Below, piece after piece: positions 9,938-51,671 of a stretch of DNA of 64,000 bases; the stretch's first letter is position 1, and each line of letters opens with the position of its first letter. The position numbers were made by a program, and so were the translations under genes. The DNA comes from an uncultured Planctomycetales bacterium (lineage in GTDB: Bacteria; Omnitrophota; Gorgyraeia; Zapsychrales; Aceulaceae): NCBI GenBank assembly GCA_964648665.1, contig CAZYOA010000008.1, positions 550-64,549 of the forward strand. Reading direction: 5' to 3'. The notes beneath the pieces were generated by a model that searched no databases, was not told where the DNA came from, and worked only from the letters and a program-made list of their open reading frames with translations.

Positions 9938-9984
9938 GTTAAAACTCCAGTCTAAATTAAAACGATGCAAACATTTTAAGACTT

Positions 9985-10974
9985 TTATGTTAATTTACAA
10001 GATAATTTTAAAGAATCGCCTTTTTGGAAAGAAAGTCGTCTTCTTGCAGACCTGATAATTAAGCGGGCATTATGGATAGTCACTTTTATTTTTTCATCAT
10101 AAATAACATAATTCTTCTTTAGCGCAACAGGCGTAAAACTCGGCATAATAACATTACATCCAGCATCCAAAGCTTTTCTTTGAGCCTTGTTGCCTCCCAG
10201 AGTTGTCAAAGCAGTCGTCACCGGCATATGTGCATTTCTCGTCACAATCCTTGTTAGTGCAATTATTTTTAAAACAAGAGAGATATCTGAAAACTTATGA
10301 CTTGCCAATGGCGTTTGACTCTGCGGCATAAAAGGGCCAATGCCAATCATATCAGGTTGAAAATCTTGATAAAACAAGATATCTTGAACAAGATGCTCTA
10401 GCCTCTGACCCGGAAGACCAACAATATTTCCAGAGCCAACCTGAAATCCAATCTTTCTTAAATATTCTAAAATCTTCAGACGCTTCCTAAGAGATTGACC
10501 CGGATGAAAACTCTTATAAAGATTCTCATCTGCCGTTTCATGCTTTAAAAGATATCGGCTTGCCCCCGCATCATAAAAAGCTTTATAATCATCAAAAGGT
10601 CTTTCACCTAAAGAAAGAGTAACCGCCAAATCAGGACATTGTTTCTTTATTTTTCTTATAACGCTTGAAAACTTATTCCTTGTATAGAAAAGATCATCAC
10701 CAGATTGCAAAACAACCGTTTTAAAACCTTTTGATCGAACATTAGCTGCAGCTCTTACAATTTCAACATCCTTTAATCGCATCCTTTGGGCTTCTTTGTT
10801 TTCTCGACGCAAGCCACAATACAAGCAATTACGAACACAATAAGATGAAAATTCAATCAACCCTCTTAAAAAAACTTTATCCCCACAAAACTGTTTACGA
10901 GTTTGATTTGCTTGATTAAAAAGAACTTTTGAATCTTTATCTTTTAAGAATTCAAAGATTTCATTTCTTGTCAT
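9985..10974 (-). CDS. hydE: [FeFe]-hydrogenase maturase HydE (radical SAM)
   Basis: CVRNCLYCGLRR CX3CX2C motif, about 330 aa, directly after hydG. The track start (11040) is TTG inside hydG. ATG at 10974 (MTRNEIFEFL) lies 4 nt after the hydG stop, with AAGG upstream. Confidence 0.85.
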   Translation of the reverse strand: MTRNEIFEFLKDKDSKVLFNQANQTRKQFCGDKVFLRGLIEFSSYCVRNCLYCGLRRENKEAQRMRLKDVEIVRAAANVRSKGFKTVVLQSGDDLFYTRNKFSSVIRKIKKQCPDLAVTLSLGERPFDDYKAFYDAGASRYLLKHETADENLYKSFHPGQSLRKRLKILEYLRKIGFQVGSGNIVGLPGQRLEHLVQDILFYQDFQPDMIGIGPFMPQSQTPLASHKFSDISLVLKIIALTRIVTRNAHMPVTTALTTLGGNKAQRKALDAGCNVIMPSFTPVALKKNYVIYDEKIKVTIHNARLIIRSARRRLSFQKGDSLKLSCKLT

Positions 10975-10978
10975 AGCC

Positions 10979-12475
10979 TTAGAGATAAAGATCTCTTTCT
11001 CCTTGTTCAACTCTCTGATAAAGACTATAAAACTTATCAAATATCTCGGGCATAAACTCTTTGACCTCTTTAATTTCTTTTTTTAAAACAGGCTCTGCAA
11101 CTTTTCTTGTTTCCTCGCTTGAAAAATCATCAAGCCATTCTTTAAATGTTAAAATTGCATTAATTTTACAAAACTTTCCCTCTTGTCCGCTACGCAAAAG
11201 ATCCATAATACATTTTCCTGTGCGTCCGCATCGATATCCAGCCGTACAAAAAGAAGTGATGTATCCCATCTTTGCAAATTCACGGATAACCTCATCGAGA
11301 TTTCTTGTATCTCCTAAAATAAATTGCTGTTTCTTCTCTTCCTGGTCAGAATAAAACTCCGAATATCCGCCAATACCAATTTTTGTCGATGCATCTGTTT
11401 GCGTCACACCCAAAGAAATAGCTTCTTTCCTAATTTTAGCGCTTTCTCGAGCCGTAATAATCATCCCTGTAAAAGGAATCGACAACCGCACAACAAGAAT
11501 CAATTTCATAAAATCTTTATCAGAAACAAGGTAAGAAGAATCTTTATTTATTGTAGCCCCTAAGGCTGGCTCTAATCGAGGAAATGAAACGGTATGAGGA
11601 CCAATTCCAAATCTTTTTTCAAGTTCTCGCGCATGATACACCAAACCTAAAACCTCAAATTTCCAATCATACAAACCAAAAAGAGCTCCAATGCCAACAT
11701 CGTCAATGCCCGCCTCAAAAGCACGATGCATACAATAAAGCCTCCAGTCATAATCGCCTTTAATCGTTTTTGGTGGATGAACCTTTGTGTAAGTCGGCTG
11801 ATGATAGGTTTCCTGAAAAACTTGATATGTTCCGATACCAACTTCTTTTATACTTCTTAAATCATCAATACAAAACGCTGGCGCATTAACATTAACTCGT
11901 CTAATGCTTCCAATCCCTTTTCTCGTCTGCACATTAACCTCATAGATAGCCTTAAGACTATCTATAATATAATCAACATCATTCTTAGGATGCTCTCCAT
12001 AAACAGCAATCAATCGCTTGTGCCCAATCTTTCCGGCTAAAACCTCAACCTCTTTCTTTATTTCATCCATAGAAAGAACTCTGCGTTGAGCCTCAACATT
12101 ATCTGTCTTAAATCCACAATATTGACAATTATTAACACAATAATTTCCCATGTAAAGCGGAGCAAATGTAACAATTCGATTATTGTAAACTTTCTTTTTA
12201 ATTCGCATTGCCGCTTTTTTCATTCGATCAATTAAATCCGGATTTTCAACGTACAAAAGCGCTGCTGTCTCTTCAGGCGTTAAATTCTGAATTGATTCTG
12301 CTTTAACTAAAATTTTCTCAATATACTCTAGATCTGGATTCTTTGCCTTTTCAAGAGTCTTTAAGATTTCTTTTTCAGATATAAAATTCTTACCATCAAC
12401 AAGATACTTATTAATTTCATCTCTCTTAATTCTTTGATCTATCCAATTATTATTATTATTTTCTATATTGCTCAT
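10979..12475 (-). CDS. hydG: [FeFe]-hydrogenase maturase HydG (radical SAM tyrosine lyase)
   Basis: CVNNCQYCGF radical SAM motif plus C-terminal Cys cluster (CTAGYRCGRTGKC). ThiH-like length. ATGA overlap with the hydF stop. Confidence 0.9.
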   Translation of the reverse strand: MSNIENNNNNWIDQRIKRDEINKYLVDGKNFISEKEILKTLEKAKNPDLEYIEKILVKAESIQNLTPEETAALLYVENPDLIDRMKKAAMRIKKKVYNNRIVTFAPLYMGNYCVNNCQYCGFKTDNVEAQRRVLSMDEIKKEVEVLAGKIGHKRLIAVYGEHPKNDVDYIIDSLKAIYEVNVQTRKGIGSIRRVNVNAPAFCIDDLRSIKEVGIGTYQVFQETYHQPTYTKVHPPKTIKGDYDWRLYCMHRAFEAGIDDVGIGALFGLYDWKFEVLGLVYHARELEKRFGIGPHTVSFPRLEPALGATINKDSSYLVSDKDFMKLILVVRLSIPFTGMIITARESAKIRKEAISLGVTQTDASTKIGIGGYSEFYSDQEEKKQQFILGDTRNLDEVIREFAKMGYITSFCTAGYRCGRTGKCIMDLLRSGQEGKFCKINAILTFKEWLDDFSSEETRKVAEPVLKKEIKEVKEFMPEIFDKFYSLYQRVEQGERDLYL

Positions 12476-13725
12476 TTCAACGCCTTTTTTTTAACCTGTT
12501 GATAAATATTAAAACTCTCAGAAAAAGGCTCAAGAACTCTTTCCAAAACACCCTGTAAAAAAGAAATGCATACTCCATAATTTGTTACCGGAACTCCTAT
12601 TTTCTTAGCATAATACATGCGCCTTAAGGTTTCTTTTCGAGTGATCATGCAAGATCCACATAAAACCGCTAATTTATATTCAGATAAATCCTCTGGATAA
12701 TCTCGTCCCGAACAAACATCAATCTTAAGATCTGCTTTTGTATACTCTTTAAGCCATCGAGGAATTTTAACGCGTCCAATATCATCTTCTACCGCATGAT
12801 GACTACACGCTTCTGCAATTAAAACTCGATCGCCATCTTTAAGTGAATCAATTGCACAAACACCTTCAACCATCTGATTAAGATCACCTTTAAGACGTGC
12901 AAAAACAATAGAAAATGTTGTACATTTAACATCGCTAGGCGTCCCTACAACCATTCGATCAACAACCTGAGAATCACAAACAACAATATCTGGAGGTGTC
13001 TTCAGCCTATCTAAAACAGACAAATACTCGCTCTCCTTAACGATAAGCGCAGAAGAATCATGATCAAGAGCATCTCGAATAGTTTGGACTTGAGGCAAAA
13101 TAATTCTTCCCTTAGGAGCTTCTAAATCAATCGGAACAATCAACACCGATAATCCTCCCTTAGGCATCAAATCCCCAATCAACGCCGAAGGTTTAATAAA
13201 ATCTTCAGGACAACATTCAATCAATTGCTCTTTAAGCAACAAAACATATTCATTTCTTTTTTCAAGATTTACACTTGAGCACAAAACAACTTTTTCAGTC
13301 TTTTTTCTTAAATCTTTAACAAAATCATCCGAAGGCTGCTGAATATCAATCTTGTTTACAACAATAATCAATGGCATGTTTTGTTGCTTTGCCTGATCAC
13401 AAACATAATCTTCAAATTCTGTCCAAACTTCAGACTCAACAATCAAAACAACAACATCGCTTCGATCAAAAATCCTTTTTGTCTTCTTAATACGCAATTC
13501 TGAAAGATCAGATGAATCGTCTAGCCCTGCTGTATCCAAAAATACAACAGGCCCAATCGGAAGAAGCTCCATCGCTTTTTCAACAACATCTGTTGTTGTT
13601 CCAGCAATCTCTGACGTGATCGCAACATTCTGCCCCACCACAACGTTAAGAAAACTTGACTTTCCTACATTTGTTCGACCAAAAAGACCAATCTGAAGCC
13701 TTAATGATTTCGGTGCCGTCTTCAT
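12472..13725 (-). CDS. hydF: [FeFe]-hydrogenase maturation GTPase/scaffold HydF
   Basis: G1 GRTNVGKSS, G3 DTAG, G4 NKID. C-terminal cluster motif CSHH...46 residues...LCGSC. Confidence 0.9.
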   Translation of the reverse strand: MKTAPKSLRLQIGLFGRTNVGKSSFLNVVVGQNVAITSEIAGTTTDVVEKAMELLPIGPVVFLDTAGLDDSSDLSELRIKKTKRIFDRSDVVVLIVESEVWTEFEDYVCDQAKQQNMPLIIVVNKIDIQQPSDDFVKDLRKKTEKVVLCSSVNLEKRNEYVLLLKEQLIECCPEDFIKPSALIGDLMPKGGLSVLIVPIDLEAPKGRIILPQVQTIRDALDHDSSALIVKESEYLSVLDRLKTPPDIVVCDSQVVDRMVVGTPSDVKCTTFSIVFARLKGDLNQMVEGVCAIDSLKDGDRVLIAEACSHHAVEDDIGRVKIPRWLKEYTKADLKIDVCSGRDYPEDLSEYKLAVLCGSCMITRKETLRRMYYAKKIGVPVTNYGVCISFLQGVLERVLEPFSESFNIYQQVKKKALK

Positions 13726-13728
13726 CAG

Positions 13729-13986
13729 TTAATCCTGCTCTAGTTTTCCTAAGCCCGATTTTACAAAAACACCATCAATAGCTCCAAGCTGTCCTGTCAA
13801 TGCTCCAACTTCATCCGTATTGGCATCTACAATCAATGTCATAACACTTAAGCCTCTCTCCTTATACGGAATTCCCATGCGACCAACAAACATTGCAGCA
13901 TGTTCATGCAAAACATGATTTACATCTTCAGCACTCTTGTCTCTATTTTCAATGATAATTCCAACAAATCCTAACCGTTTCTTCAT
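13729..13986 (-). CDS. TM1266-family putative iron-only hydrogenase system regulator (ACT-like)
   Basis: About 85 aa, GFVGIIIENRDKSAEDVNHVLHEHAAMFVGRMGIPY...LIVDANTDEVGALTGQLG. This family typically sits next to hydEFG. ATG at 13986 is preceded by AGGAGG. Confidence 0.7.
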   Translation of the reverse strand: MKKRLGFVGIIIENRDKSAEDVNHVLHEHAAMFVGRMGIPYKERGLSVMTLIVDANTDEVGALTGQLGAIDGVFVKSGLGKLEQD

Positions 13987-14008
13987 CACATCCTCCTTTT
14001 TAAAAATA

Positions 14009-14045
14009 AACCCAACTTTATCATGAAGATAAGTCGGGTTTTTTA
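14009..14045 (-). terminator. Imperfect hairpin with flanking T-runs between the stand-alone REC gene and the TM1266/hydFGE genes
   Basis: AACCCGACTTATC...GATAAAGTTGGGTT on the minus strand, followed by TATTTTTAAAAAGGAGG. Could be a partial terminator or attenuator inside the long operon. Confidence 0.35.
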
Positions 14046-14111
14046 TATTGCCCCCTTAGCGTTAGGATAACCTCCCTATTCTTTAGGAATTAAATTAATT
14101 TTCTATTATTT

Positions 14112-14495
14112 TTACTGTATATATTGTTCTACGATCTTTAAAAAATACTCTGGGTCAATCGGCTTTTCTAATATTGCCTTAACAGGCAAAAGTGTTTCAC
14201 CGGTTTCATAATCAAAAGCAAAATTAGAAGCTTTTTTAATACCGGAAACAATAATAACAGGAATATTTTTTGTTGATTCATCAGATTTTAATTTCTGGGA
14301 AATATCGAATCCTTTCGAATCATGCTCCATCATAATATCAAGAGAAATAAGGTCTGGTTTCTCGCTTTGAGCTTTTACAAATCCCTCTTCGCCACCATTA
14401 GCAGACACAACTACAAAATCTTTAGCTTCCAAAAGAACTGTCACCGCTTGTATGAAATCAGGGTCGTCATCAACAAGCAAAACTTTCTTAGACAT
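14112..14495 (-). CDS. Stand-alone response-regulator receiver (CheY-like) protein
   Basis: VLLVDDDPD, phospho-acceptor PDLISLDIMM, IPVIIVSG, LEKPI. No output domain. Close paralog of the REC domain of 18410..19297. Confidence 0.85.
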   Translation of the reverse strand: MSKKVLLVDDDPDFIQAVTVLLEAKDFVVVSANGGEEGFVKAQSEKPDLISLDIMMEHDSKGFDISQKLKSDESTKNIPVIIVSGIKKASNFAFDYETGETLLPVKAILEKPIDPEYFLKIVEQYIQ

Positions 14496-14554
14496 TACAT
14501 CCTCCTTTTTTAGAATTCGTATTGTGATATTCTACAAGCAAATCTATCTTTTGT

Positions 14555-16300
14555 CTACTTTCGATATTCCGCACGCGGAATATATTTTGTATGCAAAAGA
14601 TGATGAGCCTTCTCGCCTAAAGGCTTACCAAGAAAATCTTTATACAACTTTTGAATATATGGATTATCATGTGAACATCGAACACTTTTCGCAGCATCCT
14701 CATCATAAAGCCCTTTAGCTCGAGCGGTTCTAACCTCATCATTAATCATATAAGGTTGTCCACCACCTCCAACACATCCTCCAGGACAAGCCATAACCTC
14801 AACGAAATGATAAGGCAAAGGCTCATTATTCTTTATCGCATCGCGTATTCTATCTAAAACAGAAACAACATTTGCAAGACCATGCGCAACAGCAATTTTA
14901 ACCTCTGTTCCTTTTATATCAATCGATGTCTCTTTGACTCCTTCAAGCCCTCGAACATCTTTAAAATCAAATTCTTTCAAATTTTCTTTTGTAATAACAG
15001 CATATGCTGTACGCAATGCGGCTTCCATGACCCCGCCTGTTGCGCCAAAAATTGTTCCTGCACCAGAATACTCGCCTAATAAAAGATCCGGCTCTTCATC
15101 TGGAAGATTATTAAAATCAAGTCCAGCTTGTCGAATCATACGAATAAGCTCACGCGTCGTAATAACCACATCAACATCCTGATATCCAGAAGCAAACATC
15201 TCTTCCGATCTAGAAATTTCATACTTCTTAGAGGTACATGGCATAATTGAAATAACTTTTATTTTCTTAGGATCAATCTTTTTTTGCTCAGCATAATACG
15301 TCTTAGTTAAAACACCTAAAATCTCATGCGGAGACTTAGTTGATGAAAAATGCTCAATCATGTCTGTATAAAACTTTTCCATAAAATCAACCCAAGATGG
15401 ACAACATGTTGTAATCATCGGCAAAACGCCTTTTTTATGAACAAAGCGTTCGACAAATTCATTCCCCTCCTCCATGATTGTCACATCAGCTGCAAAATTA
15501 GTATCGAAAACTGTATCAAATCCTAAACGTCTCAAAAGAGCATAAAGTTTTTTTGTTAGATTTACGCCTGGCTCATATCCAAAGCCTTCACCAACAGCAA
15601 CGCGAACAGCTGGAGCAATCTGAACAACACAATGTATCTCAGGATCTTGAAGCGCCTCCCAAACTTTGGCTGTATCATCTTTTTCAAAAATAGCTCCTGT
15701 TGGACAATGCGCAGAACACTGACCGCATCGAACACAAGGAGATTCACCCAAAACAATATCTCCCGCTGGTGAAATGCGCGTATTCACACCTCTTTCTAAG
15801 AAAGATAATGCCCAAACAGCTTGTGTCGATTGACAAACTTCAACACATCGGCCACATTTAATACATTTTGAAGGATCTAAAACAATTGTATTCGTTGTAT
15901 TATCTTTTGGGATTTCTCTAACAATCTTTTTAAATTGTTCTTCGCGAATTCCAAAATCAGAAACAAGAGTTTGAAGTTCACAATTATTATTTCTTCCACA
16001 CTTCAAGCAATCATTAGGATGATCTGACAAAATAAGCTCTATGACAGTTTTGCGTGTCTCAACAATCTCTGGATCATGCGTAATAATATCCATGCCTTCT
16101 TCGAAAGGCGTACAGCACGATCTCAGCATCTTGCTTGTCCCCTTAACACGAACAATGCATATACCGCAAGCTGCAGAAGGACTAACATCTGAATGATGGC
16201 AAAGAGTTGGAATCTTAACCTGAACTTTTTTCGCTGCATCAAGAATGGTCGTCCCTTTCTCGACCTCAACTGATATTCCGTTTATTATTCCTTTAATCAT
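14555..16300 (-). CDS. hndD: [FeFe]-hydrogenase catalytic subunit (HndD/HydA, group A3-like)
   Basis: N-terminal 2Fe-2S and multiple 4Fe-4S Cys motifs. H-cluster signatures TTCCPSW, MPCTSKKYE, EVMACPGGCVGGGGQP. Confidence 0.95.
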   Translation of the reverse strand: MIKGIINGISVEVEKGTTILDAAKKVQVKIPTLCHHSDVSPSAACGICIVRVKGTSKMLRSCCTPFEEGMDIITHDPEIVETRKTVIELILSDHPNDCLKCGRNNNCELQTLVSDFGIREEQFKKIVREIPKDNTTNTIVLDPSKCIKCGRCVEVCQSTQAVWALSFLERGVNTRISPAGDIVLGESPCVRCGQCSAHCPTGAIFEKDDTAKVWEALQDPEIHCVVQIAPAVRVAVGEGFGYEPGVNLTKKLYALLRRLGFDTVFDTNFAADVTIMEEGNEFVERFVHKKGVLPMITTCCPSWVDFMEKFYTDMIEHFSSTKSPHEILGVLTKTYYAEQKKIDPKKIKVISIMPCTSKKYEISRSEEMFASGYQDVDVVITTRELIRMIRQAGLDFNNLPDEEPDLLLGEYSGAGTIFGATGGVMEAALRTAYAVITKENLKEFDFKDVRGLEGVKETSIDIKGTEVKIAVAHGLANVVSVLDRIRDAIKNNEPLPYHFVEVMACPGGCVGGGGQPYMINDEVRTARAKGLYDEDAAKSVRCSHDNPYIQKLYKDFLGKPLGEKAHHLLHTKYIPRAEYRK

Positions 16301-16324
16301 CTAAAAAACTCCTTTTTATATATC

Positions 16325-18064
16325 TTATCTTCTAATTGCTGAAAATCGACACACTTCAAAACAGCGTCCACATTGAATACATTTTTCCTGATCAATAACA
16401 TACGGTTGATCTTTGCTTCCTGTAATCGCGTCTACAGGACAATTTCTAGCGCAAAGTCCACATCGCTTACATTTTTCTTCAATAACTGCATAACTAAATA
16501 AATCTGAACATTTTCCAGAAGGACATCGCTTGTCTAAAATATGAGCAAGATATTCTGCTTCAAAAAATTTCATTGTTGACAAAACAGGATTTGCGGCTGT
16601 CTGACCTAACCCGCAAAGAGACGCTTTTTGCATACATGCTGAAATAACTCGTAATTTTCTTAAATCATCCAGCTCTCCTTTTCCTTCTGAAATCTTTGTC
16701 AAAAGACCTAAAAGCTGTGTCCCTCCAATTCGACAAGGCGCACATTTTCCACATGATTCTTCAACGCAAAATCCTAAATAAAATTTTGCAATATCAACCA
16801 TACAATCCGTTTCATCCATAACAATCATTCCACCAGACCCCATGATTGATCCCAATTTTTGAAGACTTTCATATTCAACTGGTGTATCAAAGAATTCCTC
16901 CGGAATAACACCTCCCGAAGGTCCACCTGTTTGAATCGCTTTAATCTTTTTCCCATCTAAAACACCACCCCCAATATCAAAAACAATCTCACGCAACGTT
17001 GTTCCCATGGGAACTTCAACTAATCCTGAATTTTGAACTTTTCCAGTTACAGCAAAAACTTTCGTTCCTTTAGATGTTTCTGTTCCAATCGAAGAAAACC
17101 ATTTTCCTCCTTTTAAAAGAATAATCGGAATGTTCGCCAATGTCTCAACATTATTAATAACCGTAGGCTTACCCCATAACCCTTTAATTGAAGGATACGG
17201 CGGTCTCGGCCTCGGGCATCCTCTTTTTCCTTCGATAGAAGCAATCAAAGCTGTTTCTTCTCCGCAAACAAAAGCGCCAGCACCAAGTCGAATTTCTAAA
17301 TCAAAATCAAATCCTGAGCCAAAAATATTCTCACCTAAAAGTCCATACTTTCTAGCTTGATTAATCGCCAAATTAATACGTTTAATCGCCAAAGGATATT
17401 CTGCACGAATATACAAAAACCCTTTTGTTGCACCAATCGCATAACCTGAAATCATCATTCCCTCTAAAACAGAATGAGGGTCTCCTTCTAAAACGCTACG
17501 ATCCATATACGCTCCTGGATCTCCCTCGTCAGCGTTACAAATAACATATTTTTGATCAGACTCAACACCTTTAGCAAAATTCCATTTCATCCATGTTGGA
17601 AATCCTCCACCGCCTCGTCCTCGCAACCCACTGATCTTCATCTCATCAATAACGAAATCCTGAGATTTCTTTGATAAAATCTTTTTAAACGCTTGATATC
17701 CATCTTGACAAATATAATCATCAATATTTTCTGGGTCAATAACTCCACAATTTCTCAACACAACTCTTAATTGTTTATTATCAATCTTGAAAACAAGCTC
17801 TTGTATAACTTTGTTCTTTTTTAATGTTTTTTCAATAATCAAATCAAGATCTTCTTCTTTGACATTTGCATAAACAACATTTTCAGGAAGAATTTTAAAA
17901 ACGATACCTTTATTATAAAGACCTATATCTGCGGCCCTGACCACCTGGATAGAATCAGCAAGATTCTGATCTCTAAGCTTTGAAATCAAAATGTCATAAA
18001 AATGCTTTGTTTTTTTATTTTCTTTTGTATCTTTAATTAAAACGATTTTCTTGTATCTAGACAT
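16325..18064 (-). CDS. hndC: NuoF-like flavoprotein subunit of the hydrogenase (HndC/HydB), NAD(P)/FMN-binding with C-terminal 2x[4Fe-4S]
   Basis: GRGGGGFPTWMKW, CGKCAPCR, C-terminal CKRCGLCARNCP and CIQCGRCFEVC ferredoxin motifs. Confidence 0.9.
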   Translation of the reverse strand: MSRYKKIVLIKDTKENKKTKHFYDILISKLRDQNLADSIQVVRAADIGLYNKGIVFKILPENVVYANVKEEDLDLIIEKTLKKNKVIQELVFKIDNKQLRVVLRNCGVIDPENIDDYICQDGYQAFKKILSKKSQDFVIDEMKISGLRGRGGGGFPTWMKWNFAKGVESDQKYVICNADEGDPGAYMDRSVLEGDPHSVLEGMMISGYAIGATKGFLYIRAEYPLAIKRINLAINQARKYGLLGENIFGSGFDFDLEIRLGAGAFVCGEETALIASIEGKRGCPRPRPPYPSIKGLWGKPTVINNVETLANIPIILLKGGKWFSSIGTETSKGTKVFAVTGKVQNSGLVEVPMGTTLREIVFDIGGGVLDGKKIKAIQTGGPSGGVIPEEFFDTPVEYESLQKLGSIMGSGGMIVMDETDCMVDIAKFYLGFCVEESCGKCAPCRIGGTQLLGLLTKISEGKGELDDLRKLRVISACMQKASLCGLGQTAANPVLSTMKFFEAEYLAHILDKRCPSGKCSDLFSYAVIEEKCKRCGLCARNCPVDAITGSKDQPYVIDQEKCIQCGRCFEVCRFSAIRR

Positions 18065-18065
18065 T

Positions 18066-18413
18066 TTAGTTCACCTTTATATTAAAAATATGATCATTCA
18101 ATAAATATTTTCCTGATGCATGTTTATCAATAATCTTAATCGCTGTTTCTTCATCCACTCCCCCATAGACAACCGTTGGCATTCCTTGAACGCAAACTTC
18201 AACCAATGGTTCAGCATGGCACATTCCAGAACATCCACATTGTTCAATTGCAATTTCTGCCTTGCGCTTTTCTTTTTCTTCAACGAGTGTCTTAAAAACT
18301 TTATCAGCGCCAGCGGCAATACCGCATGTGCTCATTCCAACTTTAATCCAATCGCCTTTTCTTTTTTGCCCTTGACTTTTAATTTGATCTAAATTTACTT
18401 TTTCATTTTTCAT
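18066..18413 (-). CDS. hndB: Small thioredoxin-like [2Fe-2S] subunit (HndB-like)
   Basis: 115 aa, MSTCGIAAGA...CGCSGMCHAEPLVEV Cys pattern. Position between the hndA-like and hndC-like genes. Confidence 0.75.
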   Translation of the reverse strand: MKNEKVNLDQIKSQGQKRKGDWIKVGMSTCGIAAGADKVFKTLVEEKEKRKAEIAIEQCGCSGMCHAEPLVEVCVQGMPTVVYGGVDEETAIKIIDKHASGKYLLNDHIFNIKVN

Positions 18414-19297
18414 TTTGAAGAAATCTCCTTCTCAACCGTCTCTTTAGAATATTCCGATAAAATATCCATAATTTCATTTCGTTTAACTTTTCCATATGTT
18501 TTATTATCAATCGTCATAACCGGGGCAAGACCACAACACCCTAAACAGCGAACAGATTGAAGATGAAAAAGGCCATCTTTTGTTGTTTGCCCTTCTTCAA
18601 CATGAAGAATGTTCTTAATCTCAGTAACAATGTCTGCTGCCCCCTTTAAATAACAAGCTGTTCCCATACAAACTGAAATTAAATGCTTTCCAGGAGGATC
18701 AATCTTAAAGTAATTGTAAAACGTAATTACCTCATAAATTCTGGCTAAAGGAATATCTAGAATTCGAGAAAGTTCAAAAGATACATCTCTAGGCACATAG
18801 CCATAATGATTCTGGATTTCATGCAAAACCATAACAAGATTACCTTTCTTTCCTTTCCATTTCTCTGCTAAAGCATCCAGCTCCCCAACAACCTTACGAT
18901 GTTCTTCTCCAGTTTTTCGAATATAAGCACGAGCCATCTTTAATAATATTTCAGGCTTAACAGGCTTTTCTAAAACAGCCTTTACCGGAAGCGCTTTTTC
19001 ATTTGGCTTCAAATCAAAAGGAAAATTAAGTTCTTTTCGAGCTCCCGTAATCAAGACAACAGGGATATCTTTAATCGCAGCATCATTAGCCATAGCTTTA
19101 GCCGTTTCTGCTCCTTCTGTTTTATACGTCATCATCATATCAAGAAAAATTAAATCCGGAGATTCATCTTTTACTTTCTGAAAACCTTCTTGACCATTCG
19201 ATGCAACAACAACATCGTATCCACTAGCTTCCAGCAAAAGCGATGTCGCCTCCGTGTAATCATGATCATCATCAATAATAAGTATTTTATTTCTCAT
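18410..19297 (-). CDS. hndA: Fusion protein: N-terminal response-regulator receiver domain + NuoE/HndA-like [2Fe-2S] hydrogenase subunit
   Basis: Residues 1-125 form a complete REC (ILIIDDDHD, PDLIFLDMMM, IPVVLITG, LEKPV). Residues about 150-295 are NuoE-like (LHEIQNHYGYVP, SVCMGTACYLKG, VRCLGCCGLAPVM). Single uninterrupted ORF with ATG start and 4-bp overlap with hndB. Confidence 0.85.
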   Translation of the reverse strand: MRNKILIIDDDHDYTEATSLLLEASGYDVVVASNGQEGFQKVKDESPDLIFLDMMMTYKTEGAETAKAMANDAAIKDIPVVLITGARKELNFPFDLKPNEKALPVKAVLEKPVKPEILLKMARAYIRKTGEEHRKVVGELDALAEKWKGKKGNLVMVLHEIQNHYGYVPRDVSFELSRILDIPLARIYEVITFYNYFKIDPPGKHLISVCMGTACYLKGAADIVTEIKNILHVEEGQTTKDGLFHLQSVRCLGCCGLAPVMTIDNKTYGKVKRNEIMDILSEYSKETVEKEISSK

Positions 19298-19312
19298 TTC
19301 AATTCCCTTTTT

Positions 19313-21151
19313 CTATACTTTTTTAATCCTAAACTTAAATGAATTACCACTCGCCTTTGGTTCAACCCAAATTCGCCCTCCATGCTTTTCTATGATCTCT
19401 TTTGTAATAAAAAGTCCGATCCCTGTTCCTTTTACGGTTTCCATCCCCCTGTAAATAATACGAGAAAACTTTTTAAATAATTTATCGACATCGATAGATT
19501 CAATCGGTTGACCATCATTATAAACTTCCACTTCAATTTCATCGCCTTTTTCTTCTAAAGAAATTCGTATTTGTCCTTTAACTTTCGCATATTTAATAGC
19601 ATTACTCAAAAGATTATTAGAAACAATCTGCAAGAGTCCCGCATCACCTAAAATTTTAACACCTGAATCAAGATTATTAATAATCTCAATATCTTTCTCC
19701 TTGGCTTGTTGCAAAAAAGATTCAATTGTAATATCAAAAACATGCTCTTTAACTAAAAGTTCATTCTTAGTCAGCTGAAGCTCTGCTTTTTCAATACGAC
19801 TTAAGTTTAAAAAGTTTTTTACTGTTACTGTTAAATAATCTAAATTTCGAGACACAGAAGCAAGTGTCTTTTCTTGCTTTTCATTAATTTCACCTAAAAT
19901 CTTATTCTTCAAAAGATATGTATTTAAAACAATCGAAGACAGAATGCCTTTAAGTTCGTGCGAAACAAACCCGATAAGATCAAGATAACGCGTATTTAAG
20001 ATCTCAACCTTTTCTTTCGACTTCTTTAAGCTTTCCTCTCTTCTAGCAAGCTTTCCAGACATATCGTTAAAAGAGGAAATAAGTTCATTAAGCTCCTGAA
20101 TAGATGTTTTTTCAGTAATTTTACTATCTAAATTTCCTCTAGAAATCTTTCGGGTTGTAACCAATACTTCATTTAACGGTCTCGTAATCGATCCTGTCAG
20201 AATATAGAAAAAGACTCCTGCTAACAAAGCTGTTAAGAAAATAATCATAAAAAAAGCAAGGAATGTATTTCGTCCCATAATTAAAAATGGTTTTTCTAAA
20301 ATACCTACATATAAAATCCCAATGATATTTCCTTTTATGTTCTTAATCGGCTCGTAGGCCGTAATATACCAATCAGTCACAACAAAAGCTTTATCAAACC
20401 ATTTCTCGCCTTCTTTAACAACCCGTCTATAAACTTCATCTGATACGCGTGTTCCAATCGCTCTTTGACCTTCAGCGTCTAGAACATTAGTTGCAATACG
20501 AACATCATTTTGGAAAATTGTTACTGTTCCAACAGGCTTATCTTCATAAAACTTATTTTCAAAAACAAAATCAGAAATGCTATCAATAAGCTCAAAATTT
20601 TGATTAATAATCCGTCCACCATACAAGACTTTTACAACTTTTTCTGAAGAATTTAAAATCGGACGAGCATGCTCAATGACCATCAAATCACGAACAACCA
20701 TTTTCTCAGTCGGACTAGCCTTTAACGTTGACTTAATAATAATCGATGCATCTTCTCTCTCTGGAACAATTTCTCTAAATTCATCACTTGAAATAATCCG
20801 ATATCCACCAACAGGCTTCTTTGAATTAAGAGCCTTTAAAACAATCTCATTATTTAGTTGAAGAGCATCCGCTTGATTTACTAATTTCAAATAATCTAAG
20901 CCCGCTTTGCCTTCAACCTCTTTAAGATTCTGACTCGGATCCATAAGATCAATGGCTAAGCTAGCAAGCTGCAACTGTTGAGCGCATACCGTATTGACAA
21001 TTCTTAAATCATTTCTAATACGATCTTGTGCTTGCTCAAAAATGTATTTCTTAATAAAAAAGAATCCAAAAATAGACATACACACAACTAAAAATAAAAT
21101 GACGTATGATAAAGAAATTAAGATTTGAGTTCTAAGATTTATATTTTTCAT
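19313..21151 (-). CDS. Sensor histidine kinase (TM - periplasmic Cache-like domain - TM - HAMP - HisKA - HATPase)
   Basis: Two TM segments flank an approx 260-aa extracytoplasmic domain. HAMP (TRPLNEVLVTTRKISRGNLD), H-box FVSHELKGIL, N/G boxes (NLLSNAIKY, GTGIGLFITKEI). The track start 21175 is TTG. First ATG at 21151 (MKNINLRT). Confidence 0.85.
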   Translation of the reverse strand: MKNINLRTQILISLSYVILFLVVCMSIFGFFFIKKYIFEQAQDRIRNDLRIVNTVCAQQLQLASLAIDLMDPSQNLKEVEGKAGLDYLKLVNQADALQLNNEIVLKALNSKKPVGGYRIISSDEFREIVPEREDASIIIKSTLKASPTEKMVVRDLMVIEHARPILNSSEKVVKVLYGGRIINQNFELIDSISDFVFENKFYEDKPVGTVTIFQNDVRIATNVLDAEGQRAIGTRVSDEVYRRVVKEGEKWFDKAFVVTDWYITAYEPIKNIKGNIIGILYVGILEKPFLIMGRNTFLAFFMIIFLTALLAGVFFYILTGSITRPLNEVLVTTRKISRGNLDSKITEKTSIQELNELISSFNDMSGKLARREESLKKSKEKVEILNTRYLDLIGFVSHELKGILSSIVLNTYLLKNKILGEINEKQEKTLASVSRNLDYLTVTVKNFLNLSRIEKAELQLTKNELLVKEHVFDITIESFLQQAKEKDIEIINNLDSGVKILGDAGLLQIVSNNLLSNAIKYAKVKGQIRISLEEKGDEIEVEVYNDGQPIESIDVDKLFKKFSRIIYRGMETVKGTGIGLFITKEIIEKHGGRIWVEPKASGNSFKFRIKKV

Positions 21152-21773
21152 TTTTCGTTCTCTGGACTCCAGCAAAATAGTTAACCACCTCTAGCTCAAG
21201 GCGAACATTAACGTTGTTAACAAAGAAACTTTCTGGAACTTTTAAATTAATTGGAGCAAAATTTAAAGCACCTTTCATCCCTAAAGAAACCATTTTATCA
21301 ACAACCTGTTGAGCTGCAAAATAAGGAACAGCAATAACACCGACCTTAATTTTATTCTTCTTAACAAAATTATCAAGCTTATCTATAGAAAAAATTGAAA
21401 CACCCACTTCTTGCCCATACTTCAAAGGATCAATATCAAACGCAGCAGCAATATGAATCTTTTCTTTCGAAAACCCATCATATTGCATCAAAGCTCTTCC
21501 AATATGACCGGCACCAACAATAATAACATTTTGAATCTTATCTTTTCCCAAAAGTGTATTGATTTGGTCAATAAGATCATCAACAATATATCCACCTCTT
21601 TTATTCCCAGAAATATTAAGCAAAGAAAAATCTTTTCGAACTTGAGCAGAATTAGACCCTACAACATTAGCCAAATGACCTGAGAAAACCTTTTCAGAGC
21701 CTAATTCTTTCAATCGATAAATTGCATCTCTGTAACGATAAAGCCTAGAAACAGATTGTTTTGTGGTTGCCAT
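21132..21773 (-). CDS. rex: Redox-sensing transcriptional repressor Rex
   Basis: SRLYRYRDAIYRLKELG winged helix, Rossmann VIIVGAGHIGRAL. The track start 21806 is GTG and would lie upstream of the predicted -10. ATG at 21773 (MATTKQSV) preferred. Confidence 0.85.
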   Translation of the reverse strand: MATTKQSVSRLYRYRDAIYRLKELGSEKVFSGHLANVVGSNSAQVRKDFSLLNISGNKRGGYIVDDLIDQINTLLGKDKIQNVIIVGAGHIGRALMQYDGFSKEKIHIAAAFDIDPLKYGQEVGVSIFSIDKLDNFVKKNKIKVGVIAVPYFAAQQVVDKMVSLGMKGALNFAPINLKVPESFFVNNVNVRLELEVVNYFAGVQRTKNEKYKS

Positions 21774-21806
21774 ATTATTATTCTCTAATTCACTAATTAA
21801 GAGCAC

Positions 21807-21859
21807 AATATACCATACTGACTATATTTGTCAACACAATAAAGTGAAAATAATCACAA
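21807..21859 (-). promoter_or_regulatory. Sigma70-like promoter plus candidate Rex operator upstream of rex
   Basis: Minus strand TTGACA (21829-21834), 16 nt, TATATT (21807-21812). Just upstream, TTGTGATTATTTTCACTT (21842-21859) matches 11 of 14 specified positions of the Rex consensus TTGTGAAnnnnTTCACAA. Confidence 0.35.
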
Positions 21860-21930
21860 CAGATTTAACAAAAAAGGCTAGCTTCTTTTAAGAAGATAGC
21901 CCCTAAAACACCGTAATCTATATAATTATC

Positions 21931-22134
21931 TTAAAGCGGCTTTACAGCCTTCGCCTTAAACCCCTTATCGTCTTTTTCTAAATCAAATTCAACGTCTTGT
22001 TCTTCTTTTAATGTTTTGTACCCTGACTCCTGCTGAATCTCACTAAAATGAACAAATGCATCTTCACCAGACTCAGAAGTAATAAACCCGTAACCCTTCT
22101 GGGCATTGAACCATTTTACTTTACCTTTTGTCAT
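21931..22134 (-). CDS. Cold-shock protein (CspA family)
   Basis: 67 aa, [16 protein letters not shown] (RNP1) and DAFVHFS (RNP2). Confidence 0.9.
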
Positions 22135-22431
22135 TGTGCCTTCCTTCTTGAGACGTTTCGAGAAGACAAGATTCTCAAGAATCTCTTTCTTCTCTCGTGC
22201 TTAACCTATTTTTTACAATACATGACAAATATTTACTTGTCAACAACATTAGCGAGAAATCAGAATAATTTTATAAAAATACCCATGGCGGAGGCATCGG
22301 AACTTTCTTTAAGATATTAAAAATACCGCCAAGAATACTAAACGGAACTTTTAGCAATGCGCACCCAGATTGCGAAAAACATAAGATACAAAGAAAAACT
22401 ATAAAGAAACTTATTTTTGTTTTATTTGTCA

Positions 22432-27165: not shown

Positions 27166-27606
27166 TCAAATAAATTTCTTCTCTAAAAAACATTTCTTAA
27201 TAAACTCGATAGCATCTAAAAGATTATTTTGAGCTTTATCTGAAAGCTTTTCTCCAAAATCATTAAACTCATATCCACGGATACCCAAAACATATGCCTT
27301 CGTATCGGCCTTGAATAAATCATGCGCTAAAGCTAGCACAGCTTCAGGTTCGATACTATGTGTTGAAAAACTTATATCGGATTTAGGTTGAATCTCTTTA
27401 AAGAAAAATGGCTCTTGACCTTTGAGTGCTGCATCCGCAAAGATAACAACATCGTGCTCTGAAACACTTGAGGCATCTTCAACAGTCAGCTGATAATCAG
27501 AATCAACAGTTACGTCAGGGAGATTGAATTTTTCGATCGCATCAGCTAAGGCAGGACCCAATCCATCATCAAGTCGTCCAGGATTGCCATAACCAATCAA
27601 CAGCAT
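27166..27606 (-). CDS. hoxW: Hydrogenase maturation endopeptidase (HoxW/HycI family)
   Basis: MLLIGYGNPGRLDDGLGP N-terminus and a conserved His region. Located directly after hoxH. The track start 27615 is TTG. Confidence 0.8.
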   Translation of the reverse strand: MLLIGYGNPGRLDDGLGPALADAIEKFNLPDVTVDSDYQLTVEDASSVSEHDVVIFADAALKGQEPFFFKEIQPKSDISFSTHSIEPEAVLALAHDLFKADTKAYVLGIRGYEFNDFGEKLSDKAQNNLLDAIEFIKKCFLEKKFI

Positions 27607-27624
27607 TTTACTCAAAGCAAAAAA

Positions 27625-29067: not shown

Positions 29068-29085
29068 GTTCAAGCTCCTGTCTTA

Positions 29086-29631: not shown

Positions 29632-29657
29632 TTTTAAATTCCTCTTATTTTTAAAAC

Positions 29658-30368: not shown

Positions 30369-30378
30369 ATTTCCTTTT

Positions 30379-32196: not shown

Positions 32197-32361
32197 AAAA
32201 AACACCTTTTATTTGAAATGGTTTAATTTTTTATATAATCACGTCGAGAAATAAACATCTTGGTGTGCTTAGATCGTGAAAACTGGAACAATTAAAGATA
32301 TTATACATTTTTTCTTGTTTCCGTGCAAAGCATTTATTAAAAATGTTAATATTTCCGAGAT

Positions 32362-39460: not shown

Positions 39461-40171
39461 CTATGAAGGAATCAACCACTCAACCTCTCTTAACAACTCT
39501 TCAATCTTAAAAGGCTTTGTCATATACTTCTGCGCTCCAACAACTTTTCCAACAAGACGATCAGCATCATCCTGAAGAGCTGTTAACATAATGATCGGAG
39601 TTGATTCATCTTTACTTTCTCGACGAATCTTTCGACAAACTTCAAATCCATTTAACTTAGGCATCTTTAAATCCAAGATAACTAAATCTGGAGATTCCGT
39701 TAAATATTTCTGATAAGCCTCTTCTCCATCTGAAGCCGTAAAAGTTTCATATCCTGCCTTTTCAAAATGAGCATTCAATAGCGTTACAAGATCTTTTTCA
39801 TCATCAACAATCAAAATTTTCTTTCTTTGATCAGATAAAACAATTGTTTGCTGACAAAAGAAATCAAAAAATTTCTTTTCATCCTCACTGTTCGACTTAA
39901 CAATCTTTACACCTATGCGATAAAGATCAAAATCATCAAGCTTTAACGCCCAAACAACTTTTGTCATTAAGAAAATTTCTTCTTCATCTTTAATCTGAAT
40001 CGCAAGATGAACTTCTTGACCTTTACTAATCTTTAATCCTGAGCGAAAACAAATACCTTCCGGGCTTAAATTAATTGTTGTTGTTTCAAAAAACTCTTCG
40101 GAAATATCAGGCACTTTAAAACGTCCCGAAATATCAATATCTGCTCTTTTATGTTCTCTTTTTTCTGTCAT
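39461..40171 (-). CDS. PilZ domain - receiver domain fusion protein (c-di-GMP-binding response regulator without DNA-binding output)
   Basis: N-terminal PilZ with intact REHKR (RxxxR) and NLSPEG (D/NxSxxG) motifs. C-terminal REC (ILIVDDEKD, DLVILDLKMP, IIMLTA, MTKPF). Confidence 0.8.
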   Translation of the reverse strand: MTEKREHKRADIDISGRFKVPDISEEFFETTTINLSPEGICFRSGLKISKGQEVHLAIQIKDEEEIFLMTKVVWALKLDDFDLYRIGVKIVKSNSEDEKKFFDFFCQQTIVLSDQRKKILIVDDEKDLVTLLNAHFEKAGYETFTASDGEEAYQKYLTESPDLVILDLKMPKLNGFEVCRKIRRESKDESTPIIMLTALQDDADRLVGKVVGAQKYMTKPFKIEELLREVEWLIPS

Positions 40172-51663: not shown

Positions 51664-51671
51664 AACATCTC

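Follow-up and report, generated by a model that had tools for sequence, protein, structure and literature searches.

Kinase and receiver genes within a predicted Rex-controlled [FeFe] hydrogenase operon of Omnitrophota: a candidate for direct control of the enzyme

Results

Organization of the locus

The stretch of DNA analysed here (64,000 nucleotides in all, hereafter the window) stems from an Omnitrophota metagenome. On its minus strand lie, in order, a Rex box with a promoter, rex, a sensor histidine kinase gene, a fusion of a receiver domain (REC) to hndA (REC~hndA), hndB, hndC, hndD and the gene for a free receiver, closed by a terminator; beyond it, on the same strand, a TM1266-like gene is followed by hydF, hydG and hydE (Table 1). 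A first-pass annotation had described this co-directional string, and every feature was recovered on the minus strand at the coordinates of Table 1, with all domain calls upheld by Pfam. From rex to the free receiver gene the spacings are a 20-nt overlap, then 15, -4, 1, 24 and 59 nt. The kinase gene does run into the end of rex, as first noticed: the two genes share 20 nt, from the kinase ATG to the rex 3' end, and an identical 20-nt overlap is found in Ca. Velamenicoccus archaeovorus. For rex we used the ATG start (21773), the start proposed by the ORF tool being a GTG at 21806. The position of hndB between hndA and hndC is conserved in related loci.

Table 1. Genes and regulatory features of the hydrogenase locus, in the direction of transcription.
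Feature	Coordinates	Strand	Domains or basis
Rex operator-like palindrome TGTGA-N6-TCAC	21843..21858	-	9/10 of core
Sigma-70-like promoter TTGACA-16-TATATT, TG extension	21807..21834	-	score 11/12
rex, 213 aa from ATG	21132..21773	-	Put_DNA-bind_N + CoA_binding (Pfam); 213 aa on public contigs too
Sensor histidine kinase, 612 aa	19313..21151	-	TM1, bimodular periplasmic sensor, TM2, HAMP, HisKA, HATPase_c (Pfam, hydropathy, AF2)
REC~HndA fusion, 295 aa	18410..19297	-	Response_reg + 2Fe-2S_thioredx (Pfam)
hndB, 115 aa	18066..18413	-	weak 2Fe-2S_thioredx match, under Pfam cut-off
hndC, NuoF-like FMN/NAD(P) subunit	16325..18064	-	Complex1_51K, NADH_4Fe-4S, Fer4
hndD, [FeFe]-hydrogenase catalytic subunit	14555..16300	-	Fe_hyd_lg_C, Fe_hyd_SSU, Fer2_4, NADH-G_4Fe-4S_3
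Free single-domain receiver, 127 aa	14112..14495	-	Response_reg only
Intrinsic-terminator-like hairpin (A-tract, 14-bp stem, U-tract)	14002..14044	-	RNA fold of intergenic region
TM1266-like ACT-fold protein	13729..13986	-	PF21699
hydF, hydG, hydE maturases	9985..13725	-	Pfam

The Rex box is the sole match in the 64-kb window, and it lies just upstream of the top-scoring sigma-70-like site of the scanned region (9500-23000). Rex itself carries PF06971, PF02629 and the GAGHIG motif, and its operator is conserved in related loci: in L008, L010, L011, L014 and L039 equivalent boxes precede rex by 50-90 nt, and a search of 1.2 Mb of loci gave 45 boxes, about half of them less than 170 nt upstream of rex or hndA. 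This conservation of the predicted box supports the earlier idea of a Rex layer over the kinase signalling. At the other end, the hairpin after the free receiver gene (MFE -24.7 kcal/mol, z -2.4) is present in both the MFE and the centroid structures; our consensus terminator scan missed it because its loop is too long. The upstream CSD gene is closed by a terminator-like hairpin and T-run of its own at about 21903..21870, as read from the sequence. With the Rex-box promoter and the terminator as predicted bounds, rex, the kinase gene, REC~hndA, hndB, hndC, hndD and the free receiver gene would form a single operon of seven genes under the control of Rex. That Rex controls [FeFe] hydrogenase genes is experimentally established in Caldicellulosiruptor (PMC6391272), and the Rex-repressed hydrogenase operons of Caldicellulosiruptor, Clostridia and Thermotogae likewise have a TTGTGA-N-TCACAA operator before rex and the [FeFe] hydrogenase genes, with autoregulation (PMC6391272); here, however, rex leads the hydrogenase operon itself and a two-component module is inserted between the two.

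The TM1266-like protein, of the PF21699 type (E 5.9e-31), is encoded beside hydF. It had been counted as part of the regulatory wiring, but we include neither it nor hydF/G/E, because they occur in most clusters that lack kinase and receiver, with hydFGE as generic partners of hndABCD across related loci, and because all of them lie here behind the intrinsic terminator.

The hydrogenase and its fused receiver

NuoE-like, small thioredoxin-like, NuoF-like and H-cluster subunits in one operon, together with hydEFG, place the hydrogenase in group A3, members of which have already been noted in Omnitrophota (PMC10066038), and by its subunit set the enzyme is predicted to be of the electron-bifurcating type. 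The set and order of subunits are identical to those of HndABCD from Desulfovibrio fructosovorans and HydABC from T. maritima, A. woodii and T. kivui (group A3, Bfu-type). The literature searched yielded no account of a receiver on the NuoE-like subunit, nor any publication describing this arrangement of kinase, receiver and hydrogenase.

In the fusion, the receiver (residues 1-127) is joined by a helical connector, to about residue 147, to a NuoE/HydC-like [2Fe-2S] subunit that is 29-43% identical to subunit C of bifurcating enzymes (HydC etc.; 7P5H, 8A6T, 7Q4V); none of its solved matches (145-160 aligned columns, targets mostly 150-216 residues) covers the receiver part. Helix alpha5 (115-147) runs unbroken into HndA in the AlphaFold2 model, and the connector measures 37 residues in 78 of 81 sequences. 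The phosphorylation residues D9, D10, D11, D53, T84 and K111 are each retained in 72-81 of the 81 fusions, nine of which have lost the acceptor Asp while keeping the receiver domain. Both domains occur together in at least 117 clusters at 90% identity, the named ones being nearly all from Omnitrophota.

Two receivers from an old duplication

The fused and the free receiver align without gaps over 127 residues (45% identical, 70% similar, E 3e-41) and score 117-120 bits against each other, compared with 43-50 bits for either against the third receiver of the window (PilZ-REC, 39461..40171). Their Pfam Response_reg scores are 59 and 61 bits (cut-off 30), and both have a complete set of phosphorylation residues, the free receiver differing from the fused one in having Ser at position 84 (D9-11, D53, S84, K111). 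That the two are paralogs had been proposed from shared motifs, and alignment and phylogeny bear this out: each is the other's closest paralog lineage, in sister groups. In the tree, fused and free receivers form one family (172/200 bootstraps) in which the fused ones are monophyletic (171/200), and the free receiver of the window groups with the free receiver of another species in 196/200 replicates and with the fused receiver of its own genome in 0/200. As judged from these trees, the pair stems from an old rather than a recent duplication, with the free receiver as the ancestral form of the family. Neither carries a DNA-binding output, in agreement with the first-pass annotation: one consists of Response_reg only, the other of Response_reg and 2Fe-2S_thioredx, and no such regulator is encoded nearby. 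Homologs of the free receiver are all single-domain proteins among the matches listed, and among solved structures RR468 is its best match (E 2.5e-13).

When the family is compared with CheY, Spo0F and RR468, its beta4-beta5 segment is longer by about 5-8 residues and its beta3-alpha3 loop by one. The unusual insert described before the last strand therefore exists, although the term remodelled alpha4 suits it better than plain insertion: the AlphaFold2 model departs from the canonical (beta-alpha)5 fold in that residues 85-106 are predicted to be non-helical (pLDDT about 70).

The sensor of the kinase

Sensing outside the cytoplasm, as first proposed from a Cache-like domain, is confirmed by the two hydrophobic segments found by hydropathy on either side of an external region of about 260 residues and by its Pfam matches, and the ligand can now be narrowed to a best candidate. 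The second module of the sensor (module B) is of the formate type: it matches sCache_3_3 over its full length (profile positions 3-100 of 107, E 1.7e-33) and Cache_3-Cache_2 in part (E 1.6e-23), and the sensor matches the formate-bound structures 8PY1 and 8PY0. The markers of formate-binding Cache domains are defined in PMC11804620; in our own mapping onto R6/R3 numbering, taken from the printed alignment, R218 corresponds to the Arg (PacF R142), T221 and T234 to the Thr at +3 and +16, Y266 to the Tyr (R6 Y160) and T209 to the Thr (R6 T100), and all five residues are invariant across 64 kinase orthologs. The sensor and the formate-specific Cache domains (PacF dCache; sCache R3 and R6; PDB 8PY0, 8PY1; PMC11804620) thus have both the Pfam signature and the binding residues in common, which makes formate the best ligand candidate.

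The likeness is not complete. The Phe that closes the pocket and excludes acetate (R6 F175) is replaced by Tyr281, which is at least 90% conserved. Furthermore, in our model of the kinase (AlphaFold2, pLDDT 84) the formate-type module adjoins TM2 and is preceded by an additional PAS-like module, whereas in PacF it is the membrane-distal module that is of this type. The formate Cache family is also reported to occur almost exclusively in chemoreceptors (PMC11804620), while the present member belongs to a histidine kinase.

The kinase core

The kinase family comprises more than 120 clusters among the matches listed, including one from the Ca. Velamenicoccus genome. In the 64 orthologs, the phospho-accepting His and the acidic residue that follows (H398, E399) and the N, F and G2 boxes (N513/N517, F559/F562, G575/G577/G579) are invariant. 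The H-box reads HELKG and so lacks the HisKA phosphatase motif H-E/D-x-x-T/N; position 402, equivalent to T264 of HK853, is Gly in 57 orthologs, Ala in three, Asn in three and Val in one. Aligned to D411-N-G-I-G of HK853, the G1 box is N-D-G-x-P instead of D-x-G-x-G (Asn in 63/64 and Pro in 61/64 orthologs), and with Asn at the usual adenine-binding Asp of well-studied GHKL ATPases, kinase activity should not be presumed.

HK853 is the nearest solved kinase core (E 1.5e-20 by sequence, top Foldseek ranks), and HK853-RR468 of Thermotoga maritima thus provides the closest solved structures for both partners, a HisKA kinase and a single-domain receiver without DNA-binding output. The present system differs in that an enzyme subunit carries one of the receiver copies as a fusion, in the Gly and Asn at the T264 and D411 positions, in its formate-type Cache sensor and in receivers that, as modelled, have no alpha4.

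Distribution across related loci

The acceptor Asp of the fused receiver co-varies with the kinase. D53 is kept in all nine loci with the kinase immediately upstream (the window, L006-L010, L012-L014), and it is replaced in all four loci from which both the kinase and the free receiver are absent (L011 and L091, Glu; L090, Asn; L092, His). Fisher's exact test on this two-by-two table gives 1/715, by our own arithmetic on small counts from phylogenetically related loci whose kinship is ignored. We consider this apparent co-evolution the strongest new evidence that the kinase feeds the tethered receiver, as had been suggested. The kinase also appears tied to the free receiver, in line with the original proposal of one kinase for both: a receiver gene after hndD (orthologs in L008, L012, L014 and L039) occurs only in kinase-containing loci (5/5), and Ca. 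Velamenicoccus has rex-kinase and a free receiver only. About half of the loci with kinase and REC~HndA lack the free receiver, which is therefore accessory.

In L029, L030 and L039 an unfused receiver with its own stop codon lies directly upstream of hndA, and in Raymondbacteria an unfused receiver lies directly downstream of it, which provides a Rosetta-stone argument for a link between receiver and HndA. Against the proposal counts L028, where the kinase stands beside an unfused HndA with a mere receiver remnant. Fusions of canonical receivers to NuoE are found in other lineages, in hydrogenase-like as well as formate-dehydrogenase-like clusters, and appear to have arisen independently; one of them (L094) lies beside a kinase whose core differs but whose bimodular sensor is of the same type. 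Elsewhere, a GAF-kinase and two free receivers accompany an FdhA-NuoE-NuoF complex. The signalling module described here is a conserved feature of Omnitrophota, a point that the first-pass annotation did not make.

Discussion

What we observe (gene order, domains, paralogy, phyletic co-variation, operator conservation and the sensor signature) leads us to infer phosphotransfer, a ligand and an effect on the enzyme, and we find it fairly probable, if far from settled, that the [FeFe] hydrogenase is under two nested controls, transcription by Rex and direct control of the enzyme by the kinase and receivers. In the first layer, suggested by the conserved operator, Rex would bind its box at the operon promoter and let go as the NADH/NAD+ ratio rises, whereupon the hydrogenase would be made along with its own signalling proteins. 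In the second, the membrane kinase would use its formate-type Cache module to sense a small molecule in the periplasm, formate being the likeliest, and would phosphorylate Asp53 of the receiver at the N-terminus of HndA, the NuoE-like [2Fe-2S] subunit near the flavin site. Since a connector of fixed length carries alpha5 of the receiver unbroken into the first HndA helix, phosphorylation might move HndA, alter how it associates or change the oligomeric state of the complex, and hydrogenase activity or direction could be switched without new gene expression. This helical continuity and the lack of a linked DNA-binding regulator are what point to direct post-translational control. The same kinase would serve the free receiver, which may dock on the Hnd complex or on the tethered receiver, or drain phosphate from the latter; a phosphate sink would be useful because the kinase lacks the HisKA phosphatase residue (H-E-x-x-T/N).

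A conventional transcriptional two-component system, in which the true partner is a DNA-binding regulator elsewhere in the genome, the receivers are sinks or buffers and the hydrogenase is not regulated at the protein level, strikes us as improbable. Output-less receivers are established phosphate sinks, as with CheY1/CheY2 of Sinorhizobium, the same sensor type is accompanied by an NtrC-type sigma-54 activator in L094, and our search for regulators was confined to the loci and the window. However, no DNA-binding regulator stands beside the kinase in about 13 Omnitrophota loci or near hnd in the window, only 15 nt separate the kinase gene from REC~hndA, a mere sink would have no need of a length-invariant helical tether to HndA, and the retention of the domain as a pseudo-receiver after loss of the kinase suggests a role on the enzyme. 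That nine of the 81 fusions keep the domain without the acceptor Asp could mean that the fused receiver is mainly a structural or assembly domain without a phospho-switch, the kinase acting through the free receiver only or being dead; the N-x-G-x-P form of the degenerate G1 box and the predicted absence of alpha4, part of the usual switch surface, would agree with this. We nevertheless give such a reading little credence, given how widely the phosphorylation residues persist among the 81 fusions and given that the phospho-His, the Glu that follows it and is essential to the kinase, and the N, F and G2 boxes are (nearly) invariant. Moreover, in 4/4 cases D53 and the kinase are missing together, and in two of these D53 has given way to Glu, the classic phosphomimetic for a receiver Asp.

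A less drastic departure would keep the wiring as proposed, with the free receiver as a pure phosphate sink that shortens the lifetime of the signal and has no second output. Its presence only where the kinase is, and the Gly of the HELKG box in 57 of 64 orthologs, would suit such a role, but we hold it to be unlikely, though less so than the two preceding readings: free receivers appear ancestral, and as sole receiver of the cluster in Ca. Velamenicoccus and Raymondbacteria they must carry an output there, while their position directly beside hndA suggests binding to HndA. Both one-kinase/two-CheY sinks and enzyme-fused receivers are known. The CheA-CheY1/CheY2 system of Sinorhizobium resembles the present one in that one kinase serves two output-less receivers, although the kinase is of a different class and the sink role here is putative. 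CheB, PleD and RpfG have receivers that control the attached enzyme; here, what would be regulated is an iron-sulfur subunit within a redox enzyme of several subunits rather than a catalytic domain in the same chain.

Returning to the direct control of the enzyme that we favour, its parts, being small, soluble or easily truncated proteins, make the hypothesis directly testable, and the natural D53E, D53N and D53H variants without kinase constitute ready-made controls.

Fermenters and syntrophs owe their redox balance to electron-bifurcating hydrogenases, which are also studied for hydrogen production, and to our knowledge their control is either transcriptional (Rex) or exerted via sensory hydrogenase paralogs. 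Formate and H2 are interchangeable interspecies electron carriers. Formate would thus be a sensible signal, through which the electron pressure of the community would bear on the activity of the hydrogenase or on its direction, and some Omnitrophota are predicted to require external formate for the Wood-Ljungdahl pathway (PMC10066038). A membrane kinase acting on an enzyme-fused receiver, with no DNA-binding regulator, would be an undescribed mode of regulation for this enzyme class. If this is true, an extracellular sensor would, by way of a receiver attached to the subunit next to the bifurcating flavin, switch the enzyme itself and do so rapidly, and this would be the first post-translational, signal-dependent switch described for bifurcating enzymes. 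More broadly, and only as a tentative possibility, the NuoE-like subunit of enzymes that bifurcate electrons by means of a flavin may be a direct target of two-component phosphorylation; the [FeFe] hydrogenase of Omnitrophota would then be gated by a formate-sensing kinase on the time scale of phosphotransfer, with the free receiver as a detachable second regulatory subunit, and the same logic may have evolved independently elsewhere.

Gene organization and operon boundaries

Pfam bears out every gene and domain call of the first-pass annotation, which had read a co-directional string of rex, a Cache-HAMP histidine kinase (HK), a receiver fused to HndA (REC~HndA; its receiver part is the fused REC), hndBCD, a stand-alone receiver (free REC), a TM1266-like gene and hydFGE from the sequence alone, and the genes called on identical metagenome contigs in public data form the same set. 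The source organism belongs to Candidatus Omnitrophota. rex and HK share 20 nt, with the HK start codon inside the 3' end of rex, as they do in Ca. Velamenicoccus archaeovorus, and the spacings from rex to the free REC are, in order, -20, 15, -4, 1, 24 and 59 nt. Upstream of rex, a hairpin with a T-run can be read after a cold-shock gene, followed by the Rex-type palindrome and then by a sigma-70-like promoter (TTGACA-16-TATATT), the best in the scanned region 9500-23000; the counts from the consensus promoter and terminator scan did not exceed those of shuffled sequence. Reading of the sequence and RNA folding place a terminator-like hairpin after the free REC, which the consensus scan overlooked because its loop is long. 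We read rex to the free REC as a single seven-gene unit. About 15 nt separate the end of the hairpin from the TM1266 ribosome-binding site, with no space in 13986-14000 for a separate promoter, so that expression of the maturase genes would require read-through or a promoter that overlaps the hairpin. These genes may be expressed by read-through or attenuation, and TM1266-hydFGE is probably an attenuated downstream continuation of the unit.

Features of the window and of comparison loci (coordinates of the window unless a locus is named)
Feature	Position	Strand	Description
rex	21773..21132	minus	winged-helix and Rossmann domains (Pfam)
HK	21151..19313	minus	sCache_3_3 / Cache_3-Cache_2, HAMP, HisKA, HATPase_c (Pfam)
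REC~HndA fusion	19297..18410	minus	Response_reg and 2Fe-2S_thioredx (Pfam)
hndB	18413..18066	minus	weak 2Fe-2S_thioredx match
hndC	18064..16325	minus	NuoF-like
hndD	16300..14555	minus	catalytic subunit, [FeFe] hydrogenase
free REC	14495..14112	minus	127 aa, Response_reg only
terminator-like hairpin	about 14044..14002	minus	A-tract, 14-bp stem, U-tract
TM1266-like	13986..13729	minus	PF21699
hydF, hydG, hydE	13725..9985	minus	maturases
Rex-type palindrome	21843-21858		upstream of rex
149-aa ORF	27166..27615		position of a maturation endopeptidase; no Pfam match
Hox-type [NiFe] hydrogenase	27625-33392		HoxU, HoxY, HoxH and hypA/B/F/C/D/E, with the fusion below
HoxE~HoxF fusion	30379..32205		608 aa
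second two-component pair	39461-43883		1220-aa dCache-HAMP-multi-PAS kinase, then PilZ-REC protein (PilZ N-terminal, receiver C-terminal)
carotenoid-type genes	48564-51693		lycopene cyclase domain, phytoene/squalene synthase, amine-oxidase-type desaturase
superoxide reductase	54228-54620		desulfoferrodoxin type
chimeric-looking ORF	L028 1837-2052		71 aa, between HK and unfused hndA
tandem REC-NuoE-REC-NuoE	L095 8001-9737		578 aa
kinase and REC~NuoE cluster	L094 2983-12713		bimodular formate-type-sensor kinase, NtrC-type regulator, REC-REC, canonical-REC~NuoE, NuoF-like, hydrogenase-like gene
kinase and two-receiver cluster	L087 6274-15460		GAF-histidine kinase, two single-domain RECs of the window's family, then FdhA-like/NuoE/NuoF-GltD complex

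The Hox-type hydrogenase lies directly upstream of the rex-REC string and is co-directional with it; its NuoE-like domain carries no receiver. The dCache kinase and PilZ-REC protein form the window's one further two-component pair, and it is an anaerobe's genome that has the carotenoid-type genes and the superoxide reductase. Across positions 1-64000, the plus strand holds only 6 of the 56 ORFs that reach 100 aa, three of these inside or overlapping longer minus-strand ORFs; the GC skew is negative throughout and its cumulative curve monotonic, which places the window within a single replichore.

Rex and TM1266

The Rex layer is ordinary. The palindrome upstream of rex is the sole match in the 64-kb window, and the 1.2 Mb of fetched loci hold 45 TGTGA-N6-TCACA boxes (at least 9/10 positions), about half of them no farther than 170 nt in front of rex or hndA. 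Every HK locus whose sequence takes in rex and the region upstream of it has such a box, apart from L012 (no box) and L009. In Caldicellulosiruptor bescii, gel shifts showed that Rex represses the [FeFe] hydrogenase genes and rex itself (PMC6391272). The TM1266-like protein, initially regarded as a further sensory layer, was rejected as part of the wiring: it is present in most clusters devoid of HK and REC, and lies behind the terminator in the window.

Distribution of the kinase-receiver module

Scanning one genome per GTDB species yielded 80 loci, which were annotated with the window's proteins. A cluster of rex, hndABCD, TM1266 and hydFGE without kinase or receiver is the common form, occurring in Omnitrophota as well as in MAGs labelled Fibrobacter, Firestonebacteria, Verrucomicrobia, Spirochaetes and others. 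HK together with REC~HndA is found in a subset of Omnitrophota (L006-L014), the fusion comprising at least 117 clusters at 90% identity and the HK family more than 120 clusters among the matches listed. In L029, L030 and L039 the gene immediately preceding hndA encodes an unfused REC that ends in a stop codon of its own. A REC follows hndD in the window, L008, L012, L014 and L039, and on a Raymondbacteria contig hndA is directly followed by a free REC. In Ca. Velamenicoccus, rex-HK comes first; the hydrogenase after it is arranged differently and its HndA is unfused, and behind it lie, in order, hydG/E, a free REC and hydF.

The two receivers are old paralogs

The paralogy of the two receivers proposed in the first-pass annotation holds: they are 45% identical over their full length without gaps, and both have the complete set of phosphorylation residues. 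A word-indexed search with the free REC returned no fused REC and is no measure of closest-homolog status, and we therefore searched the fetched loci with phmmer and built a neighbor-joining tree with 200 bootstraps. Fused RECs were monophyletic in 171 replicates and the fused plus free core family in 172; the window's free REC grouped with that of L008 in 196 replicates and with the window's own fused REC in none, on which ground a recent within-genome duplication or gene conversion was rejected. On this tree, an old duplication separates fused and free RECs into sister paralog lineages, of which the free form looks ancestral. As judged by eye, their similarity at the kinase-docking residues of α1 is not above the domain average.

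Compared with CheY, Spo0F and RR468 (the receiver of the solved Thermotoga pair HK853-RR468), the family has one additional residue in the β3-α3 loop (DMMMTYKTEG, without Pro), and the NFPFD-type insert noticed at first reading is real, with 5-8 extra residues ahead of β5 (the NFPFD...LPVKA segment). An AlphaFold2 model (81-sequence alignment, pLDDT 83) renders this segment non-helical and lacks α4, while α5 (115-147) runs unbroken into the first HndA helix; the connector from K111 to W147 is 37 residues long in 78 of 81 fusions. A stable α4 is likewise missing from FAT GUY receivers; assignment to that family was rejected, as the PFxFATGY motif is absent.

The phospho-acceptor co-varies with the kinase

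The acceptor Asp (D53) is retained in 72 of 81 fusions and otherwise replaced by His (5), Glu (2) or Asn (2), amounting to at least three kinds of substitution in different backgrounds. We examined the genomic context of each variant type for which a long enough contig was available. Upstream of the fusion are rex directly, without HK, in L011 (D53E); a cold-shock gene and a small membrane ORF, without rex or HK, in L091 (D53E); unrelated genes in L090 (D53N); and a divergent csgG in L092 (D53H). The Cache kinase and the free REC are absent from all four loci, and HK is immediately upstream in 9/9 loci that keep D53; a simple Fisher test of HK presence against D53 state gives 1/715, ignoring phylogenetic kinship. 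This pattern suggests that HK signals to the fused REC. No clean link was seen between D53 loss and deletion of the α4 segment, which affects all five His variants and several Asp-containing fusions.

L028 is an exception of another sort, where HK is followed by an ORF with only a REC remnant and then by unfused HndA. This seemingly chimeric ORF joins an HndB-like N-terminus (GMSTCEIAAG) to a β5-α5 remnant (VKEVLEKPLKP...), and is either a product of fusion decay or an assembly artefact of the 2.5-kb contig.

The kinase core

The closest solved relative of HK is HK853 and that of the free REC is RR468, its single-domain partner. The 64 HK orthologs do not vary at the phospho-His, at the Glu after it or in the N, F and G2 boxes. 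The HisKA phosphatase position (T264 in HK853) is Gly in 57 of them (H-box HELKG, residues 398-402, without the phosphatase Thr/Asn), which suggests weak HK phosphatase activity and would thereby give a phosphate-sink receiver a purpose. The G1 box reads N-x-G-x-P rather than D-x-G-x-G (residues 544-549, Y-N-D-G-x-P; Asn in 63/64, Pro in 61/64), with Asn at the adenine-binding position, and this deviation is the chief reservation that the sequence raises about kinase activity.

A candidate formate sensor

Hydrophobic segments at about 10-32 and 296-318 of HK enclose an external region of about 260 residues, which an AlphaFold2 model (pLDDT 84) resolves into a long helix, a PAS-like module (76-181) and a second module (186-285) running into TM2. 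The second module is a full-length sCache_3_3 match, and its only solved-structure matches are 8PY1 and 8PY0, the formate-bound sCache domains of Monteagudo-Cascales et al. (PMC11804620). This match came from a sequence search with the periplasmic fragment; Foldseek with the whole HK model returned kinase cores only and no sensor match. The formate-specific Cache family was defined by a Pfam signature, exactly that of the HK sensor, and by conserved binding residues, and is reported to occur almost exclusively in chemoreceptors (PMC11804620), whereas the window's sensor belongs to a histidine kinase. When the marker residues of the formate-binding proteins PacF, R6 and R3 were mapped from the printed alignments, R218 (PacF R142, R6 R111), T221 (Thr at +3), T234 (Thr at +16), Y266 (R6 Y160) and T209 (R6 T100) proved invariant among the 64 orthologs, and Y281, at the position of the pocket-closing Phe (R6 F175), is conserved in at least 90%. 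Owing to this signature and these residues, formate is the best candidate ligand of HK, though not an established one. No formate-metabolism genes were found in the window.

Recurrence of receiver-NuoE fusions

From 1.84 billion representatives, a profile that unintentionally retained HndA columns drew a noisy list dominated by multi-REC proteins. The list nevertheless contained independent REC~NuoE fusions whose receivers are ordinary and CheY-like (P0375, P0411, P0425, P0484), as well as a tandem REC-NuoE-REC-NuoE protein (P0393) in a formate-dehydrogenase-like NuoEF cluster. P0375, from an independent lineage, belongs to a hydrogenase-like cluster preceded by a kinase that shares the bimodular sensor type of the window's HK, an NtrC-type regulator and a REC-REC protein; that sensor shares about 50% identity with the window's in its core (alignment read by eye) and keeps 6/6 marker positions, on a kinase core of a different type. 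The tandem protein of L095 is accompanied by NfnB/GltD-like, NuoF-like and molybdopterin formate-dehydrogenase-like genes and three REC-AraC regulators. The sediment contig L087 likewise has one kinase with two output-less receivers beside a NuoEF-type enzyme. One more distant member of the REC family adjoins multihaem cytochromes instead, and the association is therefore not universal.

Implications for hydrogenase control

Rex control, HndABCD, TM1266 and hydEFG are already known. In the literature searched, covering REC-NuoE/REC-HndA fusions, Omnitrophota hydrogenase regulation and TM1266, we found no prior description of a module of kinase, REC~HndA and free REC, nor of its candidate formate input or of recurrent REC~NuoE fusions. 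The module is two-component signalling with an enzyme-tethered receiver and no new category. The best-supported reading is that of a Rex-gated operon in which a periplasm-sensing kinase exerts protein-level control over a receiver-carrying hydrogenase. In its favour are the phyletic co-variation, the Rosetta-stone occurrence of free and fused RECs beside hndA, the rigidity of the connector, the lack of any linked DNA-binding partner and the recurrence of fusions in independent cases. We infer that phosphorylation would alter the enzyme, and that the free REC would act as a sink or as a second regulatory subunit. In solved Bfu enzymes the [2Fe-2S] subunit HndA/HydC adjoins the bifurcating flavin subunit, and hence this subunit is a plausible control point.
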